Part shown: positions 366 through 62,953 of the stretch, in pieces
Numbering within the stretch: the stretch's first letter is position 1
Layout: each line of letters starts with the position of its first letter
Source of the DNA: an uncultured Gammaproteobacteria bacterium
Lineage (GTDB): Bacteria > Patescibacteriota > Patescibacteriia > Patescibacteriales > GWC2-42-12
Assembly (NCBI GenBank): GCA_964431805.1
Contig: CAYSKV010000004.1
Coordinates: 12,201 to 76,200 of the forward strand
Reading direction: 5' to 3'
Length of the DNA: 64,000 nt
Notes under the pieces: generated by a model
Told to the model about the DNA's origin: nothing
The model's database searches: none
The model's input: only the letters and a program-made list of their open reading frames with translations
Translations under genes and position numbers: made by a program

Positions 366-1340
366 ATGAATTTTAGAAACATTTTTAAGAAAGTTAAACC
401 CGTTACTAACGGCGGTAAAAAAATTGTCATAATAATCAGCGCGGTTTTAATTTTGCTTATAGTAATTGCTGCTGGTTTAGTCTTTTATTTAAAAAATGCT
501 AAAAAGGTTTTAAAGCCGGAAGAGGCTATGGTTGTGGCAGAAAAATTTATCAATGAAAATTTAGTATCGCCCAGCAATAAAGCTACGATTAAAAGCGCGG
601 TTTTAGAGGGTGATGTTTATAGTATTGTTTTAACCGTAGGTGGTAAAGATTATACTTCCTATATGACTAAAGATGGAGCCAAATTTTTTGAATCAGGAAT
701 TGATATGGCGAAATTTGCTGCAGAAAATAAAGCGCAACAAACTGCTTCAACTAATACCGCGCAACCTACTAATGTGCCGAAAAGTGATAAGCCAAAAGTA
801 GAATTGTTCGTTATGACCGAATGCCCTTATGGATTGCAAGCGGAAAAAGGCATTTTGCCGGCTTTCGCGGCGTTAGGCAATAAAATTGACGCCTCAATCA
901 AGTTTGTTCATTATTTTATGCATGGCGATAAAGAAGAAAAAGAAACTTATAATCAAGTTTGTATCAGAGATGAGCAACCTGCAAAATATGATAGTTATTT
1001 AAATTGCTATGTTATACAAGGCGATAATGCAAAATGCGTCGCGCAGGCTGGAATTGATAAAGCGAAAATGGACAGTTGCGTCGCCTCTAAAGCTAAAGAT
1101 ATTTATAAAGCGGATTCAGCTTTAAGCAATCAATATGGCGTAGAAGGTAGTCCGACTTTAATAATTAATGGAGCTCAGTCTAGCGCGGGTAGAGATGCGG
1201 CTAGTTATTTGGCCGGTATTTGCGCGGCTTTTAATACTGCTCCGGCAGAATGTTCAAATAAATTATCTAGTACGGCTCCGGCTGCTGGTTTTGGCGCCGG
1301 CGATGATGCTTCGGGCGGTGCAGCGGCTAGTTGCAATTAA
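366..1340 (+). CDS. Membrane-anchored thioredoxin-fold (DsbA-like) protein
   Basis: N-terminal TM helix (VIIISAVLILLIVIAAGLVFYL). The C-terminal half has DsbA/thioredoxin-like strings (VELFVMTECPYG, YGVEGSPTLIINGA). The active-site position reads CPYG, not CxxC. Confidence 0.55.
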   Translation: MNFRNIFKKVKPVTNGGKKIVIIISAVLILLIVIAAGLVFYLKNAKKVLKPEEAMVVAEKFINENLVSPSNKATIKSAVLEGDVYSIVLTVGGKDYTSYMTKDGAKFFESGIDMAKFAAENKAQQTASTNTAQPTNVPKSDKPKVELFVMTECPYGLQAEKGILPAFAALGNKIDASIKFVHYFMHGDKEEKETYNQVCIRDEQPAKYDSYLNCYVIQGDNAKCVAQAGIDKAKMDSCVASKAKDIYKADSALSNQYGVEGSPTLIINGAQSSAGRDAASYLAGICAAFNTAPAECSNKLSSTAPAAGFGAGDDASGGAAASCN

Positions 1341-2006: not shown

Positions 2007-2085
2007 CCCCGTTAGAAATTTCAACGAAAAAACTTAATTGGGTAATTATAAATAAAAGCAAATATTATGCAAATTTCTAACGGGG
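2007..2085 (+). promoter_or_regulatory. 15-bp perfect inverted repeat enclosing the rpsA start codon
   Basis: CCCCGTTAGAAATTT (2007-2021) is the exact reverse complement of AAATTTCTAACGGGG (2071-2085). ATG 2067 lies in the loop, 1 nt before the right arm. Confidence 0.6.
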
Positions 2086-3487: not shown

Positions 3488-4894
3488 ATGAGTAATAAAA
3501 AGGATAATGCAGTCTTAGAAAAAATCGTTTCTTTATGTAAAAGGCGTGGTTTTGTGTATCCGTCTTCAGAAATTTATGGCGGCTTAGCCGCGATTTATGA
3601 CTATGGACATTATGGCACATTGTTAAAGAATAATATTCGCGATTCTTGGTGGAAAAGCATGATTCAGATGCGAGACGATGTCGTCGGTCTTGATAGCGCG
3701 ATTTTTATGCATCCAAAAACCTGGGTTGCCTCCGGACACGTTGGCGGTTTTAACGATCCGCAAATTGATTGCAAAGTTTGTAAAAATAGATTTAGAGCCG
3801 ATCATTTATTAAAAAGTTATGGCATTGAAGCTGATAAAGCTACCCTAGAAGAGATTAACAATCATCTAAATGAACTTCGCGCAAAAAAGAAATTAAAATG
3901 CCCTAACTGCGGTTCGACTAATTTAACGGACGCAAAAGTTTTTTCGTTAATGGTAAAATCAAATATCGGTTCTCCGACGGATGAGCTTAAAGAAGAAAAT
4001 GTTGTTTATTTAAGACCGGAAACTTGCGGCGGCATTTATTTAGAATATAAAAATACGGTTGATTCTTTGCATAAGAAATTACCTTTTGGTATCGCGCAAG
4101 TTGGTAAAGCTTTTAGAAATGAAATTGTGGCTAGGCAATTTATTTTTAGAACTCGCGAATTTGAACAAATGGAAATGCAATATTTTCTTCATCCGAGCAT
4201 GATGAAAGAAAAATATGATATGTGGAAAGAAATAAGATGGAATTGGTATTTAGCTAATGGCATACCGGCGGATAAAATAAAATGGTATAAACATGAAAAG
4301 TTGGCTCATTATGCCTCCGAAGCTTATGATATTTTATATGATTTTAAAATTTTTGGCGATTTTGATGAAGTGGAAGGAATTCATGCTCGAGGCAATTGGG
4401 ATTTAACTCAACATTCTAAATTTTCCGGCATAGAACTTAATTACACTGACGACAAAACCGGCGAAAAATTTATTCCGCATATTATGGAAACATCCGCCGG
4501 TCTTAATCGAATGCTTTTAATGTTCCTTGATTTCGCTTACTCAGAAGAAACGGTTAAAGACGAGACTAGAGTAGTAATGAAATTTCCTAAACATTTAGCG
4601 CCAATTAAAATCGCTGTTTTTCCTTTATTAAGAAATAAGCCGGAGTTGGTTAAAAAGGCTAAAGAATTATATTCAGAATTGGCAAAAAATTATATATGTG
4701 AGTTTGATGATAATGGCAATATCGGCAAGCGTTATCGCCGACAAGATGAAATTGGCACGCCATATTGCGTAACCGTTGACTTTGATACTTTAGAGGATAA
4801 TCAGGTCACAGTAAGAGACCGCGATACCATGGAACAAGCTAGAGTAAAGATATCTGAATTAGAAAATTTTTTTCAAGACAAGTTTTCTAAATGA
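3488..4894 (+). CDS. glyQS: Glycine--tRNA ligase (dimeric class II type)
   Basis: 468 aa. N-terminus KRRGFVYPSSEIYGG, LRPETCGGIYL, FRNEI..R.FIFRTREFEQMEMQYF, and a C-terminal anticodon-binding domain (KRYRRQDEIGTPYCVTVD). Confidence 0.93.
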   Translation: MSNKKDNAVLEKIVSLCKRRGFVYPSSEIYGGLAAIYDYGHYGTLLKNNIRDSWWKSMIQMRDDVVGLDSAIFMHPKTWVASGHVGGFNDPQIDCKVCKNRFRADHLLKSYGIEADKATLEEINNHLNELRAKKKLKCPNCGSTNLTDAKVFSLMVKSNIGSPTDELKEENVVYLRPETCGGIYLEYKNTVDSLHKKLPFGIAQVGKAFRNEIVARQFIFRTREFEQMEMQYFLHPSMMKEKYDMWKEIRWNWYLANGIPADKIKWYKHEKLAHYASEAYDILYDFKIFGDFDEVEGIHARGNWDLTQHSKFSGIELNYTDDKTGEKFIPHIMETSAGLNRMLLMFLDFAYSEETVKDETRVVMKFPKHLAPIKIAVFPLLRNKPELVKKAKELYSELAKNYICEFDDNGNIGKRYRRQDEIGTPYCVTVDFDTLEDNQVTVRDRDTMEQARVKISELENFFQDKFSK

Positions 4895-4957: not shown

Positions 4958-6787
4958 ATGAAAAATTTAATTAAAAACTTTTTAATATTTTTTACGGTAT
5001 TTTTGTTAATTGCCGCAATCTTTAGTTTTTTTGGCGGCACCGGACAAAAAACTGAACAAGTCGGAGTAGAAACTTTAATTGGGCAAATAAATAGCCAAAA
5101 CGTTAGTAAAATTGTTGTGGTGGGTAATGAAATAAGAGTAACTTTAAAAGATGGAAAAAGTGAAATAGTAAAAAAAGAAGCCGGTGATACTTTTTCGCAG
5201 ATTGTTAAAAATTATAACGTTGATCCAGCCCAATTAAGCGGCTTAACGGTTGAGGTTCAAGATAATCAGGGTATGGATTATTGGTTGGCGACAATTTTAC
5301 CATTTTTAATTCCGTTTCTCTTAATTAGTGTTTTTATTTATTTTATGATGCGTTCGGTTCAGGGCGCTAATTCTAAGGCTATGATGTTTGGTCAATCTCA
5401 GGCTAGAGAAACCGGTCGGGAATTTAAGGGTAAGGTAACTTTTAAAGATGTGGCCGGAGCTAAAGAGGCTAAAGAAGAATTATCAGAAGTAGTTGAATTT
5501 TTAAGAAATCCTTTAAAATTTTCTGATTTGGGAGCGCGCACACCGCGCGGAGTTTTGCTTTTAGGCAGTCCGGGTACGGGTAAAACATTATTAGCTCGAG
5601 CGGTTGCTGGCGAAGCTAGCGTGCCATTTTTTTCAATTTCCGGTTCCGAATTCGTTGAAATGTTTGTGGGCGTAGGCGCTTCGCGCGTTAGAGATTTATT
5701 TCGTAAAGCTAAAAAAAGCGCGCCTTGCATAATTTTTATTGATGAAATTGACGCGGTCGGTCGCCGACGCGGCGCAGGACTCGGCGGTTCTCACGATGAA
5801 CGCGAACAGACTTTAAATCAAATTTTAGTTGAAATGGATGGCTTTGATCCTAATACTAATGTTATAGTTATCGCGGCGACTAATCGCCCCGATGTTTTAG
5901 ATCCAGCCTTACTTCGACCAGGTCGTTTTGATCGCCGAGTTATTTTAGATGAACCAGATTTAGCCGATCGTGAAGCTATTTTAAAAGTTCATTCAAAGAA
6001 AAAACCATTAGGTAAGGACGTAAGCTTGAAGCGTGTTGCCGAAAGAACTCCTGGTTTTACCGGTGCTGATTTGGCTAATCTTTTAAATGAAGCCGCAATT
6101 TTAGCGGCCATGAAAAATAAAAAAATAATTGATTTAGAAGAAATTTTTTCTTCGATTGAAAAGGTAATGCTTGGTCCGGAAAGAAAATCAAGAATTTTAT
6201 CAGACAAAGAAAAAAAGATAACTGCTTATCATGAAGCTGGCCATGCTATTGTCGCGCATTTTCTACCGCATAGCGATCCAGTACAAAAAGTTTCTATTAT
6301 CGCTCGCGGCCAAGCCGGCGGTTATACTCTTAAAATACCTCTAGAAGATAAGCATATGTATTCTAAAACAGAGTATGTTGAAGAAATTGCTGTGCTACTT
6401 GCTGGTTATATTACTGAGCAGGAAATTTTTGGCGAAGTTACTACCGGCGCTACTTCTGATTTGCGCCGCGCTACTAATTTAGCTAGAAAATTAATTACTG
6501 ATTTTGGCATGAGTGAAAATTTGGGTCCGCGAACTTTTGGTGAAAAAGATGAGATGATCTTTTTAGGTAGAGAAATCCATGAACAGCGCGATTATAGTGA
6601 AAAAGTAGCTGAGCAAATTGATAAAGAAATATCTAATTTTATTGATAAGGCCGTGCATCAAGCCAAGGGTTTAATTAAATCCAAACATGAATTTTTAGAA
6701 AAAACCGTAGACGAACTTATGAAAAAAGAGACCTTAGAAAAAGAAGAATTTGAAAAGATTGTTGGCCCTAAACAAAAAGAAGAATAA
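4958..6787 (+). CDS. ftsH: ATP-dependent zinc metalloprotease FtsH
   Basis: Two N-terminal TM segments, Walker A GSPGTGKT, Walker [10 protein letters not shown], second region of homology [20 protein letters not shown], zinc motif HEAGHAIV. Confidence 0.97.
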
Positions 6788-6937: not shown

Positions 6938-7011
6938 GAGATATTTTTTGTGGTATAATATAAATATTAATAATTAAACCTCGCTCCATAAAGCGAATGA
7001 AGGGGGAATTT

Positions 7012-7995
7012 ATGCCATTTTATAGAAATATTTTAAAACAAGCTTGGGACTTAACTCGGCGTAATAAATATCTCTGGTGGTTTGGTATTTTTGCCGCTTT
7101 AATTGGTAATGGCGGTGAATTTGAAATTTTATTTAATAATACCGGCGGTGATCCGGCGCAAGCGCTATTTCCTGCTTGGCAAAGAGTCGCTTCAACTGGA
7201 GTTTTTAGCGGTCATACTTTAAATAATATTGGAGCTTTATTAAGGCAAGATACCTTAAATATGATTCTTGTTTTTTTGGCTTGTTTAATTGTTTTAATTG
7301 TTGTGGTGCTGTTAGTTTGGCTGGTTATAGTTTCGCAAGCCGCGGTCGTTAATAATTCAGCCGCGATTATTAAACAAAAAAAACATAATCTTAAAGATGG
7401 TTTTGATTCTGGAATTTTGAATTTTTGGCCGGTTTTAACTTTGAATATTATAATCAAAGCTATAATTTATATATTGTTAGTGGCAATTAGTTTACCGGCA
7501 ATTTTTTTCAGAGGAAGTTTTGTCGCCAACACTTTTTATATTATTGCCTTAGTGATTGTTGTACTACTAGCTATAATTTTATCTTTTATAATGAAATATG
7601 CCGTGGCTTACGTGGTAGTTAATAAAAGTAAAGTTTTGTCTGCCATTAAACGCGGCTTTAAACTTTTTCAAAGAAATTGGTTAATAAGTTTTGAGATGGC
7701 TGTTATTCTATTCGCTGTAAATTTATTGATCGGTTTAGGTATAGTTTTAGCGATTTTGACTTTAGCCGTGCCATTTGCATTTTTAGCTTTAATTTTTTAC
7801 TATGCTTTTTCCGCAATTGGTTTTTGGTTAATAGCTATTTTAGCTTTTACTAGCTTTTTGTTTATTATTGTTTTAATTGGAGCGGCTTTAGCGGTTTTTC
7901 AGATTTCTTCCTGGACCGGGTTATTTTTAGAACTTGATAAAAAGAGTGGTTCCAGTAAATTAGTTAGAATGGTAAATAACATGGTAAAGGCGTAA
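7012..7995 (+). CDS. Polytopic integral membrane protein, function unknown
   Basis: About 6 or more TM segments. ATG 7012 is preferred over ATG 6997 because AAGGGGGA lies 4-12 nt upstream of it. No catalytic motif recognised. Confidence 0.6.
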   Translation: MPFYRNILKQAWDLTRRNKYLWWFGIFAALIGNGGEFEILFNNTGGDPAQALFPAWQRVASTGVFSGHTLNNIGALLRQDTLNMILVFLACLIVLIVVVLLVWLVIVSQAAVVNNSAAIIKQKKHNLKDGFDSGILNFWPVLTLNIIIKAIIYILLVAISLPAIFFRGSFVANTFYIIALVIVVLLAIILSFIMKYAVAYVVVNKSKVLSAIKRGFKLFQRNWLISFEMAVILFAVNLLIGLGIVLAILTLAVPFAFLALIFYYAFSAIGFWLIAILAFTSFLFIIVLIGAALAVFQISSWTGLFLELDKKSGSSKLVRMVNNMVKA

Positions 7996-21210: not shown

Positions 21211-22542
21211 TTATTTGCACTTATTATAGCTAGTTGTCCATGGATCCCATCTTCTTGCAGTATACAAATTACAAGCAAGCTTTATATTGTTCGCTGGCGT
21301 TAATAAATAATTTGAGCAAGTAGCGTAAAGACTAGAATCTTTTTTGTAGCAATTTCTTGCTTTGCATATAGTTGTTCCTGGCCAATATTCAAGACAACAT
21401 CCTATCGATGAATTACTATTTAAGCATGTTCTACCACTAGCATATGGATTACTTGCTGGTGTATTACCTGCGACAGCGATGCCGCCAGTGCCACCAGCTC
21501 CGCCGCACTCATTTGCACCCCCATGAGAATCAATCATGTTTATTTGCCACATACCCATTGAAAAAGCACTACCATCAGCGCATAAGTCAGTAGTGCTTGG
21601 TATGGATCTACCTTGGCTTTCCCTTTGACAGACGCAAGATGCTGTTGCTGCGTCTGCTGCCATACAGGTGCCGTTAAAATTTGCTTCTACACAGTTTCCT
21701 GTACCAGTAGCAATTTTTGAGCAGCAACAATGATAGACAACGTTGCCTGAGTCAGCGGTAGTTTGTGTTCCGCATTTACTTGTTTCAGTAGATATTATTT
21801 TATTTGTGTCGCCTCCGCATATAGTATCGCCTACGCCGCCCTCAGTGCCAATAGTATCTGGGATCCAAGTGCATGCGCCAGAAATAGCCGTTTCTATTTT
21901 TTTTACTTGAGTAATTTGCAGTGGGTTAAAAACAGTTAAGGCTGGGTTTATTTGATATAGAATTAAGTAAGAACATAAAGCAATAACCAAGCCGGTTAGA
22001 GAGGCGCCAACCCAGGATTTAGCTTCACCAATCATGGTTGCGCTACCGCCGGCCACAATCCACATTACGCCGCCGATCATTAAAACCACGGCTGCTAAAA
22101 TACCAACGATGCCGATTGCATATTGATATATTCCGGCAACATATTCGCCGATCCAATTTACAGAACAGACATTTTCACCTTTATCATTAGTTTTACAAGT
22201 ACTAGGAGAAAAAGTTAAATTAGGGATTGGTATTTGCAGTTTAGGCATGGTAGTATTTAGACCAGTAGCTTTAGGTGTTGTGGTTGGAGCTGCAGTGCAA
22301 GTTGTCGACGTATCACAGCAACATTCACAATTACTTGCGCTAGTACACATAACAGGTTTTTGGGGGTTACCAGGGCAATTGTCAAAACTACATGAAATTT
22401 GTCCATAATTACTACAATGTTTATCGCCCTGTATTACAGAATAATTGCAAGCCGCTTGAGCTATAGTTGGAAAATAAAAAAGACTAAATATTAAAAATAA
22501 TAATGGTAAATAGAATATAATTTTTGTTTTTTTGGATTTCAT
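21211..22542 (-). CDS. Cys-rich exported protein: TrbC/VirB2-like pilin hairpin fused to a C-terminal lysozyme-like domain
   Basis: Signal peptide ending AQA. Two-TM hairpin AIGIVGILAAVVLMIGGVMWIVAGG...AKSWVGASLTGLVIALCSYLIL. The C-terminal domain has CQRES (E308-S309) and SMGMWQIN (aa 328-335), like the catalytic Glu-Ser and GLMQ(IN) of SLT/lysozyme folds. Confidence 0.6.
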   Translation of the reverse strand: MKSKKTKIIFYLPLLFLIFSLFYFPTIAQAACNYSVIQGDKHCSNYGQISCSFDNCPGNPQKPVMCTSASNCECCCDTSTTCTAAPTTTPKATGLNTTMPKLQIPIPNLTFSPSTCKTNDKGENVCSVNWIGEYVAGIYQYAIGIVGILAAVVLMIGGVMWIVAGGSATMIGEAKSWVGASLTGLVIALCSYLILYQINPALTVFNPLQITQVKKIETAISGACTWIPDTIGTEGGVGDTICGGDTNKIISTETSKCGTQTTADSGNVVYHCCCSKIATGTGNCVEANFNGTCMAADAATASCVCQRESQGRSIPSTTDLCADGSAFSMGMWQINMIDSHGGANECGGAGGTGGIAVAGNTPASNPYASGRTCLNSNSSIGCCLEYWPGTTICKARNCYKKDSSLYATCSNYLLTPANNIKLACNLYTARRWDPWTTSYNKCK

Positions 22543-22552
22543 AACTTAATTT

Positions 22553-23446
22553 TTAAAAAGATGCACCTCCACTTGCTTTATAACAAGAATATAGCGTTGA
22601 TGAACATGGTCTTCCTCCAGAAATTAATGCAGGTTTAGGATTAAGAGTTTGAAGAGTTGTCGCAGAATAGCATTGACCTGAACCATCACCGCACCATTCA
22701 TTCTCATTAGCTTTTCCAAAGCAATTTCCAACGCCATCACACCATCCTGATCCACTATTACAACTGTCTCCAATTTTTGATCCCGCTGTACAAACACCAA
22801 TAGAACCTATTGCTGTAATATCCGTTGTGACCGTTTGTACTGTTGTAGTTTTAAAATTCACTAACGCCGGGTTTACTGTAGCTAAAATAAAGTAAGAGCA
22901 TAAAGCTAAAAGTAAACCGGTTAAAGAGGCGCCAATCCAAGATTTGGCTTCGCCGATAGCTGTAGCATTACCGCCAGCCACAATCCACATTACGCCGCCG
23001 ATCATTAAAACTACGGCTGCTAAAATACCGACGATGCCGATAGCGTATTTATAAATTGCTCTAATGTATTGACCTATCATGGTGGTTGAGCCGTCTGGAG
23101 TATATGCTTTTCCTTTCTGGAAATCAGTACCTATCCCGACTTGGGGAGTAAAAGAAGCTTTTTTCCCGTCAGTAGATGCTGCGGCCGTAGGTGCAGCAGT
23201 AGGAGTGGTTACGTTTTCACAACAACATTCACAGTTACTTGTATCAGTACACATTGTAGGCTTAGTTTGGCTAGCGCAACTAGAAAAATCACTTAAAGTT
23301 TGTCCATAGTCACTACAGTGTTTGCTAGCTTGTATTACAGAATAATTACAAGCCGCTTGTGTTATAATAGGGAAATAAAAAATATTAATTATAAATAACA
23401 ATATTAAGGGTAAATATAGTATAATTTTTATTTTTTTTGGATTCAT
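22553..23446 (-). CDS. Cys-rich exported TrbC/VirB2-like pilin-hairpin protein (paralog of 21211-22542)
   Basis: The signal peptide and first ~50 aa, and the two-TM hairpin (AIGIVGILAAVVLMIGGVMWIVAGG...AKSWIGASLTGLLLALCSYFIL), are nearly identical to the neighbour. The Cys/Gly-rich C-terminus is different. Confidence 0.65.
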   Translation of the reverse strand: MNPKKIKIILYLPLILLFIINIFYFPIITQAACNYSVIQASKHCSDYGQTLSDFSSCASQTKPTMCTDTSNCECCCENVTTPTAAPTAAASTDGKKASFTPQVGIGTDFQKGKAYTPDGSTTMIGQYIRAIYKYAIGIVGILAAVVLMIGGVMWIVAGGNATAIGEAKSWIGASLTGLLLALCSYFILATVNPALVNFKTTTVQTVTTDITAIGSIGVCTAGSKIGDSCNSGSGWCDGVGNCFGKANENEWCGDGSGQCYSATTLQTLNPKPALISGGRPCSSTLYSCYKASGGASF

Positions 23447-23458
23447 ATTATTATATTA

Positions 23459-24628
23459 TTATTTTCCAATAAATTGAGCTTTGTCGGATTTTTTATTGGC
23501 TTGTTTAATTATTTTTTTAATAATTTCTTTAGTAATATCGCGTCCACCTAAACCAACAACAAAACTAGCAATGTTGGCGTTAGTTTTTCCCTGGGCGAAA
23601 GCTTTAATTTCTGAAGCTAATATGCCCGTAGCTCCTAGCGAAATAGATTTATCTATAATCGCGATATTTTTAGCCGGTTTAATTATTTTTAAAATTTCAT
23701 CAGTTGGAAATGGTCTAAAACATTTAATTTTTAAAATGCCAATTTTATTTGATTTACCAATGGTTTCTTTAATAGTGCCGATAACCGAACCCATGGCCAC
23801 AACTATAGTATTAGGCTTTTTCGGACCAGAATATTCTATTAAACCATTATTTATAGATTTTTGATTTTTTAAATCAGGAAAAGTTTTGTTAAATTTTTTA
23901 TATTCTTGGTCTATAGTTTTTAAACTGGCGGTTAAATCTTCATGCAATTCCTGCCTGATTTCCATATAATAGGCTGGCGTGGCTAAGGCGCCTAAAGTCG
24001 TCGGATTAGCTGGGTCTAGGAATTGCCCTGATGCAGGTTTATAATTAGGTAAATATTTTTTTATTTGTTGCTCAGTTGGGATAATGACCGGTTCATAAGT
24101 ATGGGTCATAACAAAGCCGTCAACATTTATCATAACAGGCAATTTTAACTGCTCGGCGATTTTAAAAGCCATAATATGCTGATTAACCGCTTCTTGATGA
24201 TTTTCTGCGAACAGTAAAATCCAACCGGCATCTCTAACCGCCATTACATCTTGCTGATCATTCCAAATATTAATCGGCGCGCTTACCGCTCGATTAGCGC
24301 AAGTCATAACTATTGGTAATCTCATGCCAGCGATATTATAAATTACTTCGGCCATAAGAAGTAAGCCCTGTGAACTTGTAGCGCTATAAGCTCGTACGCC
24401 GGTAGCGCTAGCGCCTAAAACTATGGAAGCGGCTGCAAATTCTGATTCAGCGCGCACATATTCATAATCGGCTTGGCCGTCAGCTTTAAATTTGGCAAGA
24501 TCTTCAACAATATGAGTTTGGGGAGTAATTGGGTAAGCGGAAACGACGGCTGGACGGATATTTTTAACGGTTAAAGCAATTGCGCGAGAACCTTCTAAAA
24601 TTTGTTGTTTATTATTTTTATTTGTCAT
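23459..24628 (-). CDS. porA: Pyruvate:ferredoxin oxidoreductase alpha subunit
   Basis: 389 aa. GSRAIALTVKNIRPAVVSAYPITPQT, and the architecture typical of PorA/VorA alpha subunits. Confidence 0.9.
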   Translation of the reverse strand: MTNKNNKQQILEGSRAIALTVKNIRPAVVSAYPITPQTHIVEDLAKFKADGQADYEYVRAESEFAAASIVLGASATGVRAYSATSSQGLLLMAEVIYNIAGMRLPIVMTCANRAVSAPINIWNDQQDVMAVRDAGWILLFAENHQEAVNQHIMAFKIAEQLKLPVMINVDGFVMTHTYEPVIIPTEQQIKKYLPNYKPASGQFLDPANPTTLGALATPAYYMEIRQELHEDLTASLKTIDQEYKKFNKTFPDLKNQKSINNGLIEYSGPKKPNTIVVAMGSVIGTIKETIGKSNKIGILKIKCFRPFPTDEILKIIKPAKNIAIIDKSISLGATGILASEIKAFAQGKTNANIASFVVGLGGRDITKEIIKKIIKQANKKSDKAQFIGK

Positions 24629-24629
24629 A

Positions 24630-24920
24630 TTATTTTTCTTGTCTTTCCATTTTTATGGCTTTAAATGGGCACTCAACTGCGCATAAGCCACAACCCTTAC
24701 AATACAATAAATCACATTCAAAATATTTTTTACCGCTAGCGTTAGTTTTTTCGGTTTGATTAATTATGCCTTCAGGACAAATTCGTTGGCAAATGCCGCA
24801 AGCCGTGCATGCGTCATGTAAAAAATTTGGCCGGTTAGTGCGCCAGGCGCCGGTTTTATTTATTAATGTTGTGTTTGGTGAAACTGAAATATTATTTTTT
24901 ACCCCGTTAGATAGTCTCAT
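24630..24920 (-). CDS. porD: Pyruvate:ferredoxin oxidoreductase delta subunit (2x[4Fe-4S] ferredoxin)
   Basis: Two CxxCxxCxxxCP motifs: CTACGICQRICP and CKGCGLCAVECP. Confidence 0.9.
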   Translation of the reverse strand: MRLSNGVKNNISVSPNTTLINKTGAWRTNRPNFLHDACTACGICQRICPEGIINQTEKTNASGKKYFECDLLYCKGCGLCAVECPFKAIKMERQEK

Positions 24921-24961
24921 GTTTTTTAGTTATACCCCGTAAAATAATTATCTAACGGGGT
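24901..24961 (-). promoter_or_regulatory. 13-bp perfect inverted repeat enclosing the porD start codon (porG-porD junction)
   Basis: ACCCCGTTAGATA (24901-24913) is the exact reverse complement of TATCTAACGGGGT (24949-24961). A third partial copy, ACCCCGT, sits at 24934-24940. The porD ATG (24920-24918) lies inside. Confidence 0.6.
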
Positions 24962-25500
24962 GAATATTTGTATGCCTGTTCAATTGCTTTTATATTTTTT
25001 TCTATTAAATCATTATGGCCGGCAAATTTTTCTTCAATGGCTTGTTTTAAAGCAGCTAAACTTATTAAGCCAGTTGCTTTAGCAAAAGCGCCCAAAATAA
25101 CCGTATTAACAATATTTTTACCGATTATTTCTAAGGCGATTTTAGTGGCGTCAATCGTATAAATATTGGCTTGTGGCAGATTAATTTTTAAATCACGCTT
25201 AGCTTTAGACGTGTTAATAATGGCGATAGTTTTTTTGTCCGCGCCTTTAGTCATGTCAAAATTATCAAGCAGACTAGCGTCTTGAATAATTAAAATGTTT
25301 GGTTGATAAATTTGTTCTCTGGTTATTATTGGTTTATCGTCTATGCGGGCATAAGCTTCTACTGGAGCGCCGGTTCTTTCTACGCCGAAAGAGGGGAAAG
25401 CTTGCGCTTGCTCGCCGTTTTTAAAAGCGGCGATGGCGATTAGTTCAGCAGCCGTTACTACGCCTTGGCCGCCGCGGCCATGAATTCTAATTTGTATCAT
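24952..25500 (-). CDS. porG: Pyruvate:ferredoxin oxidoreductase gamma subunit
   Basis: MIQIRIHGRGGQGVVTAAELIA N-terminus, typical of PorG/PorC. Confidence 0.9.
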   Translation of the reverse strand: MIQIRIHGRGGQGVVTAAELIAIAAFKNGEQAQAFPSFGVERTGAPVEAYARIDDKPIITREQIYQPNILIIQDASLLDNFDMTKGADKKTIAIINTSKAKRDLKINLPQANIYTIDATKIALEIIGKNIVNTVILGAFAKATGLISLAALKQAIEEKFAGHNDLIEKNIKAIEQAYKYSPR

Positions 25501-55642: not shown

Positions 55643-55767
55643 AAAAATTTTTATAATTTCTAATTTTTAATTTCTAAATAATATATTAATTTTTAAATTG
55701 GAAATTAATTAATTGAAAATTGTTTGAAAATTTGAAATTGAGAATTGAAAATTATTAAGTGTTTTTC

Positions 55768-58700
55768 ATGAATAAAATTAGAATAAAAAAAGTATTGTTT
55801 ATTTTTTGTTTATTAGTTGCAGTTTTTGCTGTGGCTCATTTTGCTTTAGCCGCTGACCTTAATGTTGGTTTAGATAAGGCGGCTGGCACTGGATTAGGGG
55901 ATACTGATCCGAGGATTATTGCGGCTAGAATTATCCGAATATTTTTAGGCTTTTTAGGAATTATCGCGGTTAGTTTAGTAATGTATGCTGGCTGGATGTA
56001 TATGACGGCCGAAGGCGATTCGGAAAAAGTTGAAAAAGCTAAAAAAATATTAATTGGCGCTTTAATTGGTTTAGTAATTTGTCTGGCTTCGTTCGCGATC
56101 GCCAGTTTTATTTTAAATAGTTTATTAGACGCGACCGGCGCGCAGGATAATACTGGCGGTGGCGGTGGCGGCACAATAACGCCAGGTGGCGGTATTCCAA
56201 ATTTACCAGGAGAAGGCGAGCCATGTTTAACTAATCCTTTAGATACCCAATGCGCCGCCGGACAATGCGCCGCCGGTTTAAATTGCTCTCAGAGCGATTG
56301 TTTATGTAAAAAAACTAACCAACCAGGAGAAGGAGAAAGTTGCGACGGCGATACTAAGGTCGACGGTTGTCAAGCGATTGACTGCGCTAATAATTTAATT
56401 TGTTCATCATCAGATAATTGTACTTGCATTAAAACTCCTTTGATTGCTTGGGTAAGCCCGATGGACGCTTCAAGCACGCCTAATGGAGCAGTTGGTAATT
56501 TTATAACCATCGGCGGCAGATATTTTGGCACGACGACCGGCCAGGTAGTTTTTATGGGTGATCCTAATAATGCTAATGATGATAAAGTTGCGACTTTTCC
56601 AAATTTAATTAATCCATTATGTTTAAGTTTTTGGCAGGATGATCAGATTATAGTTGTTGTGCCAGACGGAGCGGTTAATGGTCCGATTAAAGTGATTGAT
56701 AGTAAAAATCGTTACGACACCACGGATGATAATCGCGGCGCGCGCATTAATGATTTTGTGGTAAATAGTATTAAGCGCCCTGGCCTTTGCCAAGTCGATC
56801 CATCAAGCGGCGGTTTAGCCGATCCATTTAACTTACAAGGTAATTCTTTTAATCTCACGCCTCATTCGGTTTTGTTTGGTAAAGAGACTAGCGCCATAGA
56901 AGCTAATAATATAAAAAATTGGACTAATACTTCGGTTGATGCTGTTGTGCCAAACATTGTTGATGGAAGAAACTCTATATTTGTTAAAACCGGTGATGTT
57001 TATTCTAATTCCTTGTCTTTTTCAGTTGTCAATAAAACTGATACTAATCCGGTGATTGAATATATTGAACCGGATAAAGGTCCTTCAGGACAATACATAA
57101 CAATTTACGGCCGTAATTTTCAAATTTATAACGCGCAGAAAAGCGCAGTGAAATTTTATTTGCCGGCCGATCCGAATAATAAAATTAATGCGGACATTGA
57201 TTTTCCCGCAGCTTGTAAAAGTACTTGGTGGCACGATACTTATATTGTCGTTAAAGTGCCTAAGGTAAATAGTTTAGGAGATTATAAAGTTGAAGTTACT
57301 AATTCTTACGATAAAACTAGTTTGCCGGCTGATTTTGTAATTAATAATGAAACGCCAACCCCAGGCCTTTGCGCCCTAGATCCTAATAATGGTCCGATCG
57401 GTTGGCCGATGTCGGCTTATGGCGAAAGATTTGGCGCTACCCAAGGCAGCGGGCGCGCTCAATATTTTAATAATAAAGATGCAACCGCTAGTAGTTGGGC
57501 TGATGGAAAAGTTAATACTAATGTGCCGGCTCAGTCGGTTAGCGGTCCATTTAGAATAATTGATAACCAAGGTTATATTAGTAATTCGTTGCCTTTTAGA
57601 GTTGGTAAATGTTCTTCTAATGCTGATTGTGATAGTAGCGAGGAATGTTGTGGTGGCGGAACTTATTGGTCAGGCATCTGCCGTCCAGCCGGGACTTGTA
57701 ATCAAGGTGCGCCTTTAGGTTGCGGTTTTGGTTGGACCTTTTCTACTAAAGCTGGTGATTGCGCCATCACTCAACAAAAGTGCGACATTCCTAATCCGCC
57801 CGCCGGCAGTACAATAACTTTTAATTGTTGCGCGCCCGGACAATGCAATGCTTATACTGGGCAATGCGATAGCTGTCCGGTTAATAAACCTGATATGTGC
57901 GATGGCGATTTAAAATGTTGTTCGACTGGCGGTTGTATAGATCTAGATAATGATGGTAAGACTGAATGTTCTGACGGCGAAGCTTGCTCGCAATATGGTT
58001 TAAGTCAATGTTCAAGCAGTTATTTCTGTCCGAACTCTCCAGGAAAATGTTCGACTTATGGCGGCGGCGGCACGATTGAAACCGGCGATTGCGATTTTAG
58101 CTGTAATAATTTTAGCGCTTGCAAAACTGATTTGTGCGAATATAGATCAGGTATAAATAAATGTATTAAAAAGAGTCAGACTTGCAGTTTATCTAAAACT
58201 GTTAGTTATAATGTTGGTTTAACTCCAGCTACGGCTACGGCCGAATGCTCGGCTTACGACGGTGGCAATCGTTGGATTATGAAAATCAGCACTTCTTGCC
58301 CGGCTGGTTGGACTAGCATAAGCGGCGGTCGTTGCGTAGAAAATAATACAACTTGTTCAATTTGCGATACTGGCTTTAAATGTTTAAAAGAAACGGCCAG
58401 CGCGGTTGATGGCGGTTGTTTTATCGATCAAAATGTTTGCCAAGTTGGTTCAGCCTGCAGTAGCAGCAATAAATGTATTAAAAGCGATAGCGCTAGCTGC
58501 GAATGTTGCTGCCGTATTGGTCATGATAGCGAGGACTGCTGTTCACCTTTAAAATGCGAAGGCAAATGCGGTAGCGATATAACCGCTAATACTAATACTT
58601 ACGGACGTTGTTCTGGTTGCGCCAGCGTTGGCACAACCCAAGCCGACCATAATGAAGCTTGCAACTGCTCCGGCACTAGCGGTAAATTTTGTTTAGTTGA

Positions 58701-62843: not shown

Positions 62844-62852
62844 GGTAATGAA

Positions 62853-62953
62853 CCCCAGTTAGAAATTAATTAATGGTTTAATTATTCTGGTTATATTAAG
62901 TAAAAATAAAATAATTACTGCGATGAAAAAACAAAAAAGAAATTCTAACGGGG
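62853..62953 (+). promoter_or_regulatory. Imperfect inverted repeat of the CCCCGTTAGA family spanning the ybeY start codon
   Basis: CCCCAGTTAGAAATT (62853-62867) versus AATTCTAACGGGG (62941-62953): 4 + 7 bp with one bulged A. ATG 62923 lies between the arms. Confidence 0.5.

Follow-up and report, generated by a model that had tools for sequence, protein, structure and literature searches.

A probable MITE-like palindromic element inserted at the porD start codon

The 13-bp inverted repeat at the junction of porG and porD, in the 64-kb stretch of DNA analysed here (hereafter the window), is probably formed by the ends of a 59-nt non-autonomous, MITE-like palindromic mobile element that inserted at the porD start and whose stem would couple porD to porG. 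A preliminary description of this DNA had read the same repeat as a two-state switch that might set the stoichiometry of the subunits.

An insertion at the porG-porD junction

The porG reading frame (24952-25500, Pfam POR) finishes S-P-R-stop within the upstream arm of the repeat, and porD (24630-24920, Fer4) begins MRLSNGV. Read on the minus (mRNA) strand, the order is ACCCCGTTAGATA (24961-24949), ATTATTTT (8 nt), ACGGGGT (24940-24934), ATAACTAAAAAAC (13 nt), ATG (24920-24918), AGAC and TATCTAACGGGGT (24913-24901), with 35 nt between the arms. The principal features of the locus are:

24902-24960, minus strand: putative 59-nt palindromic mobile element (CCCC...GGGG) at the porD start codon, missing in the relatives L121, L122 and L123, its termini matching at least 125 elements
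24949-24961, minus strand: 5' terminal inverted repeat ACCCCGTTAGATA, which holds the present porG stop codon TAG (24954-24952)
24934-24940, minus strand: third half-site ACGGGGT, an internal partial copy of the 3' repeat
24918-24920, minus strand: porD start codon ATG, in the element loop, new with respect to the MKNNISV of relatives
24901-24913, minus strand: 3' terminal inverted repeat TATCTAACGGGGT, translated L-S-N-G-V as porD codons 3-7
24961-24964, minus strand: left flank TTCA, standing where the left copy of a duplicated target TGAA is expected (reconstruction against L121)
24898-24901, minus strand: right flank TAAA, host sequence, the TGAA of an old ATGAAA with a G-to-A change

The geometry of the preliminary description is largely borne out: the 13-bp arms are fully complementary, the third half-site lies at plus-strand 24934-24940, and the porG stop sits inside the 5' arm with the porD ATG in the loop. 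Its spacers of 14 and 17 nt need correction to 8 and 13 nt, the first figure being right only when counted from the 7-mer ACCCCGT.

Comparison of porG-porD junctions suggests how this arrangement arose. In the three relatives whose PorD is 70-80% identical (L121, L122, L123), porG and porD share an 11-nt overlap, and all three half-sites are missing. The window junction is 63 nt longer, equal to the 59-nt element plus a 4-nt duplication, and the extra length lies exactly at the old ATG. A fourth relative, with a PorD 96% identical (L124), has a junction identical to that of the window; in the protein alignment these two begin MRLSNGVKNNISV where the others begin MKNNISV, and the position of the old porD Met is now GTA (24903-24901). 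The preliminary description had taken the arrangement for a device of the por operon, and had itself named conservation of the half-sites in related por operons as the sequence half of what should decide the matter; they are missing from the relatives at 70-80% identity, and the reading as a por device largely fails.

As read from these alignments, the comparison shows that the element inserted in a recent ancestor common only to the window and the relative with the 96% identical PorD, at the site A|TGAA within the ancestral 11-nt porG/porD overlap (...TATGAAAAATAA...). Since then porG ends at a TAG built into the 5' repeat, and porD starts at an AUG provided by the element loop, with the 3' repeat read as L-S-N-G-V and the old Met codon turned to Val. 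The third half-site is an internal partial copy of the 3' repeat, standard in the start-codon-associated sub-lineage of the family described below. A clean duplication is missing from the porD copy, which is bordered by TTCA and TAAA where TGAA and TGAA are expected, and L121 and the window align at the right flank as TGAAAAATAATATTTC versus TAAAAAATAATATTTC.

Further copies in the window

The preliminary description had called the motif recurrent, rightly, for the same core also flanks the start codons of rpsA and ybeY:

2007-2085, plus strand: second window copy, at rpsA, with 15-bp perfect arms around the ATG (2067)
62853-62953, plus strand: third window copy and an older one, at ybeY, with one nucleotide inserted into the 5' arm
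399-413, plus strand: CCCGTTA-C-TAACGGC, perhaps what is left of a collapsed copy, a weak case as only one short palindrome is present

The rpsA product begins M-Q-I-S-N-G-A, while S1 relatives, one at 90% identity among them, begin M[TPSA]EETK and have no such extension, an empty site seen at the protein level only. At ybeY the old ATG (62848-62850) is kept in the left flank ATGAA and a new ATG lies at 62923; the window protein begins MKKQKRNSNGV, versus MK[IV]EINN in most of the 120 orthologues listed. The empty ybeY site of L131 reads aagggaATGAAAATTGAA, and L128 carries a perfect duplication (ATGAA|...|TGAAAATC) in which, relative to L131, TGAA is duplicated. At least three independent insertions with different bodies have struck this one start codon (the L125 type, L129 and L130), and in L129, as at porG, the upstream ORF ends in the arm. 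The possible remnant reads in frame P-V-T-N-G-G, near the N-terminus of an ORF at 366-1340.

Three odd N-termini, MRLSNGV, MQISNGA and MKKQKRNSNGV, are accounted for in this way as transposon-derived. The shared S-N-G was considered as evidence of a peptide function and rejected as such, the frame being forced: in the 3' arm the two alternatives run into TAA and into GGGG-TAA/TGA.

The ybeY clade shares an older copy, whose arms have changed in several ways. One nucleotide has been inserted into the 5' arm of the window and L125, two positions of the 3' arm are substituted in L127, and the 5' arm carries a deletion in L128 and is gone from L126; compensatory changes, sought in the window and L125-L128, were absent, and the gene persists. 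Because the arms decay without compensation, the hairpin, judged from this clade, is not conserved as a regulator. In a neighbour-joining tree of YbeY proteins, itself weak, homologous filled alleles are scattered among empty ones, a pattern that may reflect precise excision, recombination or error, among which such a tree does not choose.

A family of very small elements in about ten phyla

We defined the family by the termini (A)CCCCGTTAGA(R-A-T) ... (A-T-Y)TCTAACGGGG(T). Ends of the form CCCCGTTAGA...TCTAACGGGG occur at at least 120 genome loci in about ten phyla (an estimated 17 or so would be expected by chance), with hosts in the Patescibacteria, Omnitrophota, Planctomycetota, Cloacimonadota, Bacteroidota, Desulfobacterota, Nitrospirota and others. 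The half-site profile is G-T-T-N-A-CCCCGTTAGA-R-A-T, of which 10-11 nt are conserved; the perfect stem reaches past this core to a modal length of 13 bp, in sequence that varies among copies, and the loops are wholly different from copy to copy. Copies listed from the genome scan measure 53-101 nt (59 nt at porD), and in some the half-sites stand only about 20 nt apart. The ORFs within elements are fusions with host genes, and none encodes a transposase.

Perfect 4-bp direct flanks of variable sequence border 57 of 125 and 45 of 119 copies, as against inverted flanks in only 5 of 125, and the reconstructed target is R|TNAA. In some 40 members, the porD copy included, the upstream flank is TTYA and does not match the flank on the other side, and 12 members combine TTCA with TAAA; flanks of this TTCA/TAAA type are not accounted for by a simple cut-and-paste model. 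Filled and empty orthologous sites are seen for porD, ybeY and rpsA (the last at the protein level, as noted). Copies are also multiple within genomes: L012 has three of 80 nt with at most 2 nt differences, L003 has two near-identical ones of 90 nt, which flank a ClpC-like gene and not a transposase, and several metagenome-assembled genomes (MAGs) gave two or three contigs with family members, the window itself holding three copies in 64 kb.

The genes hit have no common function (S1, PorD, YbeY, ClpC, pilins, glycosyltransferases), and some copies are translated within them, as in some YbeY proteins with an in-frame YPVKS...FNGV variant. Six copies occupy G|FTLIE in prepilins. The idea of a DNA-uptake sequence, raised by an enrichment close to type IV pilus genes, was rejected at a density of about one half-site per 10 kb and six exact cores in 64 kb; the enrichment comes at least partly from the preferred target GTTTAC in the G-F-T codons of prepilins.

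Neither a transposase nor an autonomous element bounded by the family ends was found in the roughly 1.65 Mb of flanking DNA examined. All-against-all clustering of ORFs (120, then 246 loci; 2,325 ORFs) gave no transposase cluster, the recurrent clusters near copies being PilB/GspE, PilC, AAA+ proteins, glycosyltransferases and ABC proteins, and inspection of the ORFs adjoining solitary half-sites gave no transposase either. Because no such enzyme or element was found in the flanking DNA, we infer mobility only from the footprints that the elements appear to have left. Full-text literature searches with the core 10-mer returned primer and oligonucleotide coincidences only, a paper on a 77-bp inverted repeat of P. 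gingivalis proving unrelated, and searches by keyword brought up no account of an element of this kind; the family is apparently new to the literature.

A hairpin that may couple porD to porG

RNA folding gives the region -21.3 kcal/mol (z = -4.65), and none of 200 shuffles was as stable. When the two pairings of the 5' arm are imposed in turn, the proximal (7-bp) conformer is less stable than the distal (13-bp) one by 3.4 kcal/mol, from which we estimate that it makes up about 0.4% of the molecules at equilibrium.

These values bear on an alternative in which the repeat is an evolved two-state translational riboregulator, the 5' arm toggling between the proximal ACGGGGU, which leaves the AUG free, and the distal arm, which encloses it, and so tuning the ratio of porD to porG; temperature, a factor or ribosome traffic might be the trigger. 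The geometry is real, the constrained ensembles lie only 3.4 kcal/mol apart, at least 120 loci have the proximal site upstream of an ATG with a strong orientation bias towards genes, and where Shine-Dalgarno sequences are lacking local structure is the main determinant of initiation. We nevertheless consider this explanation unlikely. The device is missing from the por operons of the 70-80% identical relatives; at unrelated genes and in different phyla its arms keep their sequence, in the manner of transposon ends, and are not conserved through covariation; the ybeY-clade stem decays uncompensated; the long stem is estimated to hold more than 99% of the equilibrium population; and no conserved loop, ligand pocket or Rfam family is apparent. 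The orientation bias, for its part, is trivial if the proximal site and ATG belong to one inherited element body.

The two-state proposal stands in part. The alternative pairing exists and recurs in at least 120 loci, but its arms are the ends of a mobile element found at unrelated genes; the energy gap between the conformers, which the preliminary description had asked for, is only about 3 kcal/mol, but the long stem dominates at equilibrium; and nothing points to the control of subunit stoichiometry. In the sequences compared, what is conserved is sequence, not pairing maintained through covariation. The compensatory changes among orthologous leaders by which a riboswitch would be recognized are not seen, the ybeY clade being uncompensated and the por relatives lacking the element. 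Against Rfam 15 the window had no gathering-score match, and a search of the surroundings of the site (24800-25100) at E up to 10 returned noise alone; at gathering thresholds, the elements of 18 further loci, G+C-rich variants included, gave nothing, the matches being to unrelated tRNA and rRNA.

Under the mobile-element reading, the repeats would form a 13-bp stem in the mRNA of about -19 to -21 kcal/mol, with the AUG left in a 35-nt A/U-rich loop and positions +7 to +19 buried. A ribosome finishing porG would stop inside the 5' arm and therefore have to melt the stem, so that porD initiation would stay coupled to porG translation, in place of the overlap coupling that was lost. The likely local effect of the hairpin is thus that it is melted by ribosomes terminating porG, a coupling mechanism that we infer from the modelled geometry. 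The 7-bp proximal pairing could hold the 5' arm transiently during transcription, and we regard the proximal site as an inherited part of the element, perhaps a decoy arm or a subterminal transposase site, and not as an evolved por regulator.

Other roles for the hairpin were considered. As a Shine-Dalgarno sequence the third half-site was rejected: it lies 13 nt from the AUG, and SD-like motifs precede only two of the 39 window genes, Shine-Dalgarno being essentially unused in this genome. A scan of the hairpin for promoter and terminator consensus sequences gave nothing above shuffle level. An intrinsic terminator, which needs a G+C-rich stem with a U tract directly after it, was dismissed, with no terminator-like site in 24700-25200 and the stem followed by UAAAAAAU on the mRNA strand. 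In integron attC sites R'' comes ahead of R' (5'-RYYYAAC ... GTTRRRY-3'), an arrangement that lets the folded strand display its core sites properly; here GTTAGA is 5' and TCTAAC 3' on both strands, the opposite order, and an attC site was rejected. A TATAAC box 8 nt upstream of the porD ATG seems to resemble the contexts of other window genes.

Repeats of other kinds

REP/REPIN-type inverted doublets, moved as single-stranded hairpins by a RAYT (IS200/IS605-like Y1) transposase, would explain why the half-sites are almost always convergent pairs at variable spacing (about 10-100 nt), why the whole unit folds as a single hairpin and why nested or clustered arrays of half-sites (L003, L046, L061, L118) resemble BIMEs; a recurrent T/G-type mismatch position beside the stem foot (TTCA..TAAA) could be read in the same way. 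Against this, copies overlap start codons, stop codons and ORF interiors and are not extragenic, the core is common to about ten phyla where REP sequences are normally lineage-specific, and the ORF clustering survey of the loci showed no recurrent Y1/RAYT gene near copies. Nearly half of the copies, moreover, have 4-bp direct-repeat flanks of variable sequence, and to our knowledge Y1 transposition makes none of this kind. We think an origin of this type quite improbable.

An operator, that is, a palindromic DNA site at which a conserved transcription factor or nucleoid protein regulates downstream genes, would fit the highly conserved half-site of 10-11 nt, its inverted pairing and its frequency at gene 5' ends. 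It is hard to reconcile with a half-site spacing of anything between about 10 and about 100 bp, which a fixed dimer does not allow, with sites that also lie within operons, at 3' ends and in frame inside ORFs (in L002, NPVR...SNGV within a HolB-like ORF), with flanked genes that share no function, or with filled and empty sites whose flank duplication points to insertion events, and we hold it to be very unlikely. Chance inverted repetition in AT-rich DNA, to which the only modest enrichment of the 13-mer in the window (21 matches with up to three mismatches, 13 expected) might seem to point, is negligible given the stability of the fold relative to shuffles, the three loci in the whole window with convergent pairs of the 10-mer core (at most two mismatches; 0.46 pairs expected in Markov shuffles) and the hundreds of related copies elsewhere.

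Three half-sites and the remaking of gene starts

The layout seen at porD, with a 5' arm, a proximal ACGGGG, an ATG and a distal arm, recurs in at least 120 metagenome loci, and extra internal cores occur in 17 of 134 loops (1.85 expected). Among three-site copies an ORF runs through the distal arm in the forward direction in 37 and in reverse in 11; their flanks often read ATGAA|CCCC...GGGG|TGAA, with a new in-frame ATG, and 17 of the 37 forward copies keep an old start codon in the left flank, at precisely -5..-3. An ATG in frame is present in 37 three-site copies versus 14.6 in shuffles, and the enrichment of in-frame loop ATGs is confined to gene-fused copies (26/37, versus 11/82 in the others). 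In 15 of 125 copies a long ORF is forced to begin inside the element, compared with 4.3% of random positions (p = 3e-4). Only 12-30% of copies are at gene starts, a proportion in which targeting and survivorship are inseparable.

More tentatively, and as a suggestion that may well prove mistaken, we propose that this is an ultra-small selfish element, spread across phyla and specialized for start codons (A|TGNN in an R|TNAA or GTNNAC-like target). Its repair kit would be an AUG of its own and a few Lys-rich codons in the sole frame open through the 3' repeat, making fusion in frame automatic, and the internal copy of the 3' repeat would be a decoy carried by the element. The 5' repeat would close the frame of the old start, reducing it to a short uORF (MNPVRN...stop) that finishes a few nucleotides ahead of the new AUG, and the host gene would be expressed onward via termination-reinitiation, allowing the element to colonize the essential rpsA, ybeY and por. 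The mobilizer might be a piggyBac/IS1380-like enzyme able to excise precisely.

Significance

The analysis removes a por-specific, riboswitch-like reading of the locus that was tempting but wrong, and brings to light a family of very small palindromic elements whose ends are common to many bacterial phyla. These elements appear to strike the same start codons repeatedly, rewriting the initiation regions and N-termini of housekeeping genes and the leader peptides of prepilins. This matters for gene calling in MAGs, where the points at issue are start codons, spurious 'SNG' motifs at N-termini and assemblies broken by repeats, and it bears on how essential genes can take insertions in streamlined genomes that lack Shine-Dalgarno sequences. 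The family may also mark horizontal exchange among phyla that inhabit the same anoxic sediments and groundwater and, should the mobilizing enzyme be identified, ends as short as about 13 bp and excision that may be precise could have practical interest.

Comparison with known systems

Bacterial MITEs that have been reviewed include Correia/CREE of Neisseria, ERIC, RUP and Nezha; transcripts of neighbouring genes include them as hairpins, and many are found 5' of genes (PMC3184786). Like them, the element described here is short and multi-copy, has terminal inverted repeats, in nearly half of its copies short direct-repeat flanks, and no transposase ORF, and shows filled and empty sites between relatives. 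It differs in size (about 30-110 nt for the family versus 100-400 for MITEs), in an end core common to about ten phyla and not to one genus or family, and in its repeated placement precisely on start codons; no parent insertion sequence is known. Repeats in frame within protein genes have been described as Rickettsia palindromic elements (RPE) and as pneumococcal BOX/RUP/SPRITE fusions (cited in PMC3184786). Copies of the present element are likewise tolerated and translated in coding sequence (L002, the YbeY variant, prepilins), but they belong to a different sequence family with a different host range, and are biased to the extreme N-terminus or start codon and not to surface loops.

Elements of the piggyBac/IS1380 superfamily have ends of the form TTAA|CCCTAGAAAGATA... 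and make a 4-bp duplication. The elements here share, in many copies, a 4-bp duplication of a T...A-type target, and have ends that begin CCC and contain TAGAAA (CCCCGTTAGAAAT), and the patchy filled ybeY alleles among empty ones would fit precise excision; the target, however, is R|TNAA (or GTNNAC-like) and not strictly TTAA, and the ORF survey of family loci found no piggyBac/IS1380-like transposase. We treat the relationship as a lead.

Cistrons whose translation is coupled by a stem that the upstream ribosome opens are familiar from the MS2 coat-replicase junction and from many operon junctions. At porG/porD the upstream stop likewise lies in one arm and the other arm overlaps the downstream initiation region; here, though, the function is predicted, and the arrangement would have been made in one step by a transposon insertion. 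Finally, some dispersed repeats, lineage-specific and about 120-150 nt long, provide the translation start of a downstream gene, as this element does. For these we know of no description of flank duplications or of insertion into a pre-existing start codon, whereas the present element replaces an existing start, keeping the old ATG in its left flank, and fuses in frame by means of its own end repeat (S-N-G-V).

The porG/porD junction

The porG/porD junction carries a MITE-like palindromic element whose family often sits on start codons. Its parts, and the por genes around them, are as follows:

24961–24949, minus strand: 5' arm ACCCCGTTAGATA
5' arm to third half-site, minus strand: spacer ATTATTTT, 8 nt
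24940–24934, minus strand: third half-site ACGGGGT
Third half-site to ATG, minus strand: spacer ATAACTAAAAAAC, 13 nt
24920–24918, minus strand: porD ATG, followed by AGAC and then the 3' arm
24913–24901, minus strand: 3' arm TATCTAACGGGGT
24952–25500: PorG ORF (Pfam POR)
24630–24920: PorD ORF (4Fe-4S)
23459–24628: PorA ORF (POR_N and PFOR_II)

The 13-bp inverted repeat of the preliminary description is confirmed, with perfectly complementary arms 35 nt apart, and the third half-site lies where it had been placed; the spacers quoted as N14 and N17 are in fact 8 and 13 nt long. The porG stop codon TAG falls within the 5' arm, while the 3' arm encodes L-S-N-G-V of PorD. Since the arms are as described and the junction folds at −21.3 kcal/mol (z = −4.65; equally stable shuffles 0/200), the observation stands.

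The 10-nt core CCCCGTTAGA...TCTAACGGGG also brackets the rpsA and ybeY start codons:

2007–2021 and 2071–2085: arms of the rpsA copy, 15 bp, perfect; protein start M-Q-I-S-N-G-A
62853–62953: ybeY copy, 5' arm longer by one A; protein start MKKQKRNSNGV

Such paired sites occur at three loci only in the 64 kb (0.46 expected), and at all three TCT-AAC-GGG is read as S-N-G, which is a forced reading: TAA and GGGG-TAA/TGA close the arm's other two frames. A tight palindrome at 399–413 (plus strand; CCCGTTA-C-TAACGGC), 11 codons into the ORF at 366–1340 and read as P-V-T-N-G-G, may be the collapsed remnant of a fourth copy.

Insertion at ancestral gene starts

PorD homologues of 70–80% identity start MKNNISV; the window PorD starts MRLSNGVKNNISV, an N-terminal extension common only to one protein, of 96% identity. 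In the DNA of three of the former relatives (L121, L122, L123), porG shares 11 nt with porD (...TATGAAAAATAA...), and all three half-sites, which the preliminary description proposed to look for in related por operons, are missing from each of these junctions, while the junction of the 96% relative (L124) is identical to that of the window. Aligned by hand, the window (...AAATA-TTCA-, 59 nt CCCC...GGGG, -TAAAAAATAATATTTC) and L121 (...CAATA-TGAAAAATAATATTTC) show a 63-nt insertion (59 + 4 nt) placed precisely at A^TGAA of the ancestral start (carets mark element boundaries), the old Met codon being GTA in the window. Most of the 120 listed YbeY orthologues start MK[IV]EINN; an empty ybeY site is seen in L131 (aagggaATGAAAATTGAA), L128 reads ATGAA^CCCC...GGGG^TGAAAATC, a perfect 4-bp duplication, and the window copy retains the old ATG (62848–62850) in its left flank. 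For rpsA, M[TPSA]EETK is the start in relatives, one of them 90% identical, and the window product reads MQISNG-A-SEETK, with GCG now at the old Met codon.

Of 125 genome copies, 15 leave an ORF of at least 100 codons no start outside the element; random positions drawn from these loci do so at a rate of 4.3% (p = 3e-4). Many copies read [A/G]TGAA^CCCC...GGGG^TGAAA, or have ATGGA/TGGA or ATGAG/TGAG as flanks, such that the 4-mer present twice consists of TG from the old start and the two bases after it; since the last G of the element and this TG rebuild a codon at the old Met, any frame-0 loop ATG falls in frame with the host gene automatically. The ybeY start has received at least three independent insertions with differing arms and bodies (the window/L125/L127/L128 type; L129; L130). 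In a weak neighbour-joining tree of YbeY, homologous filled alleles (MKKQ..SNGVK; decayed YSGV, SSGA) are mixed in among empty MKIEINN lineages, and precise excision or 5'-end recombination may be occurring.

Other placements were also seen. Six copies (L012:3026–3130 and 6121–6225; L085, L095, L140, L225) have TTTAC... directly after the 3' repeat and read L-T-G^F-T-L-[IV]-E in frame 1: here the element coincides exactly with the point in type IV pilin genes where prepilin peptidase cleaves, the −1 glycine is encoded by the GGG of the arm, and the G-F-T codons include the preferred target GTTTAC. PilB/GspE-type ATPase genes (and PilC) are in several-fold excess near family members (19/246 fetched loci, including L012, L024, L039, L094, L108, L164 and L205), the elements frequently lying 1.2–2.8 kb downstream of pilB or between it and pilC; the pilin target probably explains this over-representation at least partly. 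In L002, an Omnitrophica MAG (minus strand, ~6311–6363), the whole element is translated in frame at mid-length of a HolB/AAA+-like ORF (...QVNPVRNTMQGNVNKMVSNGVKIDAIRR...), like Rickettsia palindromic elements. Four YbeY proteins (P0076, P0091, P0096, P0088) contain an internal in-frame insertion, ...Y-P-V-K-S-P-L-K-R-G-V-K-Q-F-N-G-V-N-K..., which breaks the conserved YKINKNKE region and resembles a translated-through relative of the element whose ends encode PVK...FNGV; from the protein sequence alone, these ends are perhaps CCCGTTAAA/TTTAACGGG.

A family of probable small transposable elements

Scanning one genome per species for CCCCGTTAGA-N33-63-TCTAACGGGG returned at least 120 loci, against ~17 by chance (estimated from 20 fixed bases, 31 gap lengths and 596 Gb). 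By record titles, the matches listed include many Patescibacteria lineages, Omnitrophota, Cloacimonadota, Bacteroidales, KSB1, Planctomycetota (Pirellulales, Phycisphaerae, Sedimentisphaerales), Desulfobacteria, Syntrophaceae, Nitrospirota, Thermodesulfovibrionia, Nitrospinota and one gammaproteobacterium; six viral contigs carry the motif. Across 125 elements the perfect stem reaches past the imposed core (modal 13 bp), the extension varying in sequence with pairing kept (AGAAAT/ATTTCT, AGAGGC/GCCTCT, AGAAGT/ACTTCT). Loops show no relation between subfamilies, being A/T-rich in A/T-rich genomes and holding two small G+C-rich hairpins in G+C-rich ones. Perfect 4-bp direct repeats flank 57 of the 125 (TAAA 23, TCAA 10, TGAA 9, CAAA 4, TAGA 4, and others) and inverted flanks occur in 5; the empty target as reconstructed is R^T-N-A-A, often with C next, i.e. 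GTNNAC-like. Near-identical copies occupy separate places within one genome (L012, L003). Stem, direct flanks and near-identical copies are the traces that a small, non-autonomous transposable element leaves. No Rfam family resembles it, the literature searched gives no description of such an element, and no transposase was found near any copy; the family is widespread and apparently undescribed. In L003, two 90-nt compound (nested) elements (4187–4276 and 6963–7052; 99% identical, 2776 bp apart) bracket a ClpC-like gene, one at each end.

About 40 genome copies, those at porD and rpsA included, have an upstream TTYA that is not a copy of the right flank. The pair TTCA...TAAA occurs 12 times, with TTCA lying 5' of the gene in all identified cases that an ORF orients (six listed plus L130). 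As TTCA is the reverse complement of TGAA, a hairpin-templated correction, which would also destroy the old ATG, is conceivable.

The three-site architecture

Extra internal cores (ACGGGG or CCCCGT) occur in 17/134 loops (1.85 expected), and a metagenome scan for CCCCGTTAGA-N6-30-ACGGGG-N18-48-TCTAACGGGG found the three-site layout at no fewer than 120 loci, where chance would be expected to give about one or fewer (26 fixed bases; collection size not stated). When the listed matches are read in the direction set by the proximal site, the distal arm is crossed by a long forward ORF in 37 and by a reverse one in 11; 26 copies have an ATG between proximal site and distal arm, and ATGs in frame total 37, where shuffles give 14.6 and the two alternative frames 16 and 14. 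The old start codon stands exactly at −5..−3 of the left flank in 17 of the 37 forward copies (~2 expected by chance, an estimate). At least nine copies on different contigs have a common body of CCCCGTTAGAAATTCCNAAATTAACGGGG, 15–25 A/T-rich nt, ATG, seven mostly Lys-rich codons and AAATTTCTAACGGGG, placing the ATG 24 nt ahead of the distal arm; the old ATG then opens a short uORF (MNPVRN...), and about half of these end 4–16 nt before the new ATG. Because the in-frame ATG excess is limited to gene-fused copies (26/37 versus 11/82), survivorship and specialisation are inseparable. Given its recurrence and start association, the three-site geometry is a design conserved in one sub-lineage of the element, the start-associated one, and is not particular to por operons.

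The hairpin and porG–porD translation

The preliminary description took this geometry for that of a two-state RNA switch that could set por subunit stoichiometry. Both pairings are possible in the porD RNA, but the 13-bp conformer (MFE −21.3 kcal/mol; constrained ensemble −23.0) is favoured over the 7-bp proximal one (−18.7; −19.6) by 3.4 kcal/mol, by which we estimate that the long stem would make up >99% at equilibrium; the bare helices give −18.7 and −11.0. Copies in the ybeY clade descend from one older insertion whose arms have decayed differently: the 5' arm has a 1-nt insertion in the window and L125 and a 1-nt deletion in L128, the 3' arm has two substitutions in L127, and L126 has lost the 5' arm and has three substitutions. 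No compensatory arm changes were found among these copies, and the loop ATG and N-terminal extension are kept. This pattern is what is expected of a dead transposon with an adopted start codon rather than of a maintained RNA switch. The earlier interpretation is partly supported: the geometry is real and recurrent, but a por-specific or stoichiometric function finds no support.

In this Patescibacteria (Falkowbacteria-like) genome, a Shine–Dalgarno-like motif precedes only 2 of the 39 window genes of at least 150 aa; leaders are A/T-rich, and many have a TATAAT-like box 3–10 nt ahead of the ATG, a pattern suggestive of starts that are SD-independent or leaderless. How far the RNA is locally single-stranded should then govern initiation. 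The stem would leave the AUG in a 35-nt loop with positions +7 to +19 paired. Because the porG stop is inside the 5' arm, a ribosome terminating porG would have to melt the stem, which would free the porD initiation region; the most likely effect is that coupling via hairpin opening replaces the ancestral coupling by overlap. At the independent ybeY insertion L129, the upstream ORF likewise ends ...S-P-R-stop in the 5' arm. A consensus scan gave no promoter-like or terminator-like signal from the hairpin.

Other features of the region

The order is porG-porD-porA, without an adjacent porB. The PorA of a Falkowbacteria relative (L122:1849–3273; 713+ aa) has Hint/intein-splicing and LAGLIDADG matches inside POR_N; this intein is absent from the 389-aa window PorA. 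Directly downstream of porA (21211–23446, minus strand) lie two paralogous ORFs of 443 and 297 aa, the latter with no Pfam match, which have in common a signal-like N-terminus, a Cys-rich segment (AACNYSVIQ...CECCC) and a near-identical hydrophobic stretch (AIGIVGILAAVVLMIGGVMWIVAGG). Two proteins with D-x-D-x-D repeats of calcium-binding-like type come after a Cys-rich predicted surface protein of 1803 aa (55759–61170, plus strand).

Relation to known repeats

The element ends (CCC...TAGAAA, 4-bp duplication) recall piggyBac/IS1380, and the hexamers GTTAGA and TCTAAC, those of integron attC core sites, stand in reversed order in the element; both are leads only. The closest known analogues are Correia/ERIC-type MITEs, the Neisseria REP2 and Borrelia repeats, which bring an RBS and ATG, and the Rickettsia palindromic elements, which insert in frame (PMC3184786). 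From all of these the family described here differs in size, in phylum breadth and in its precise placement on start codons.
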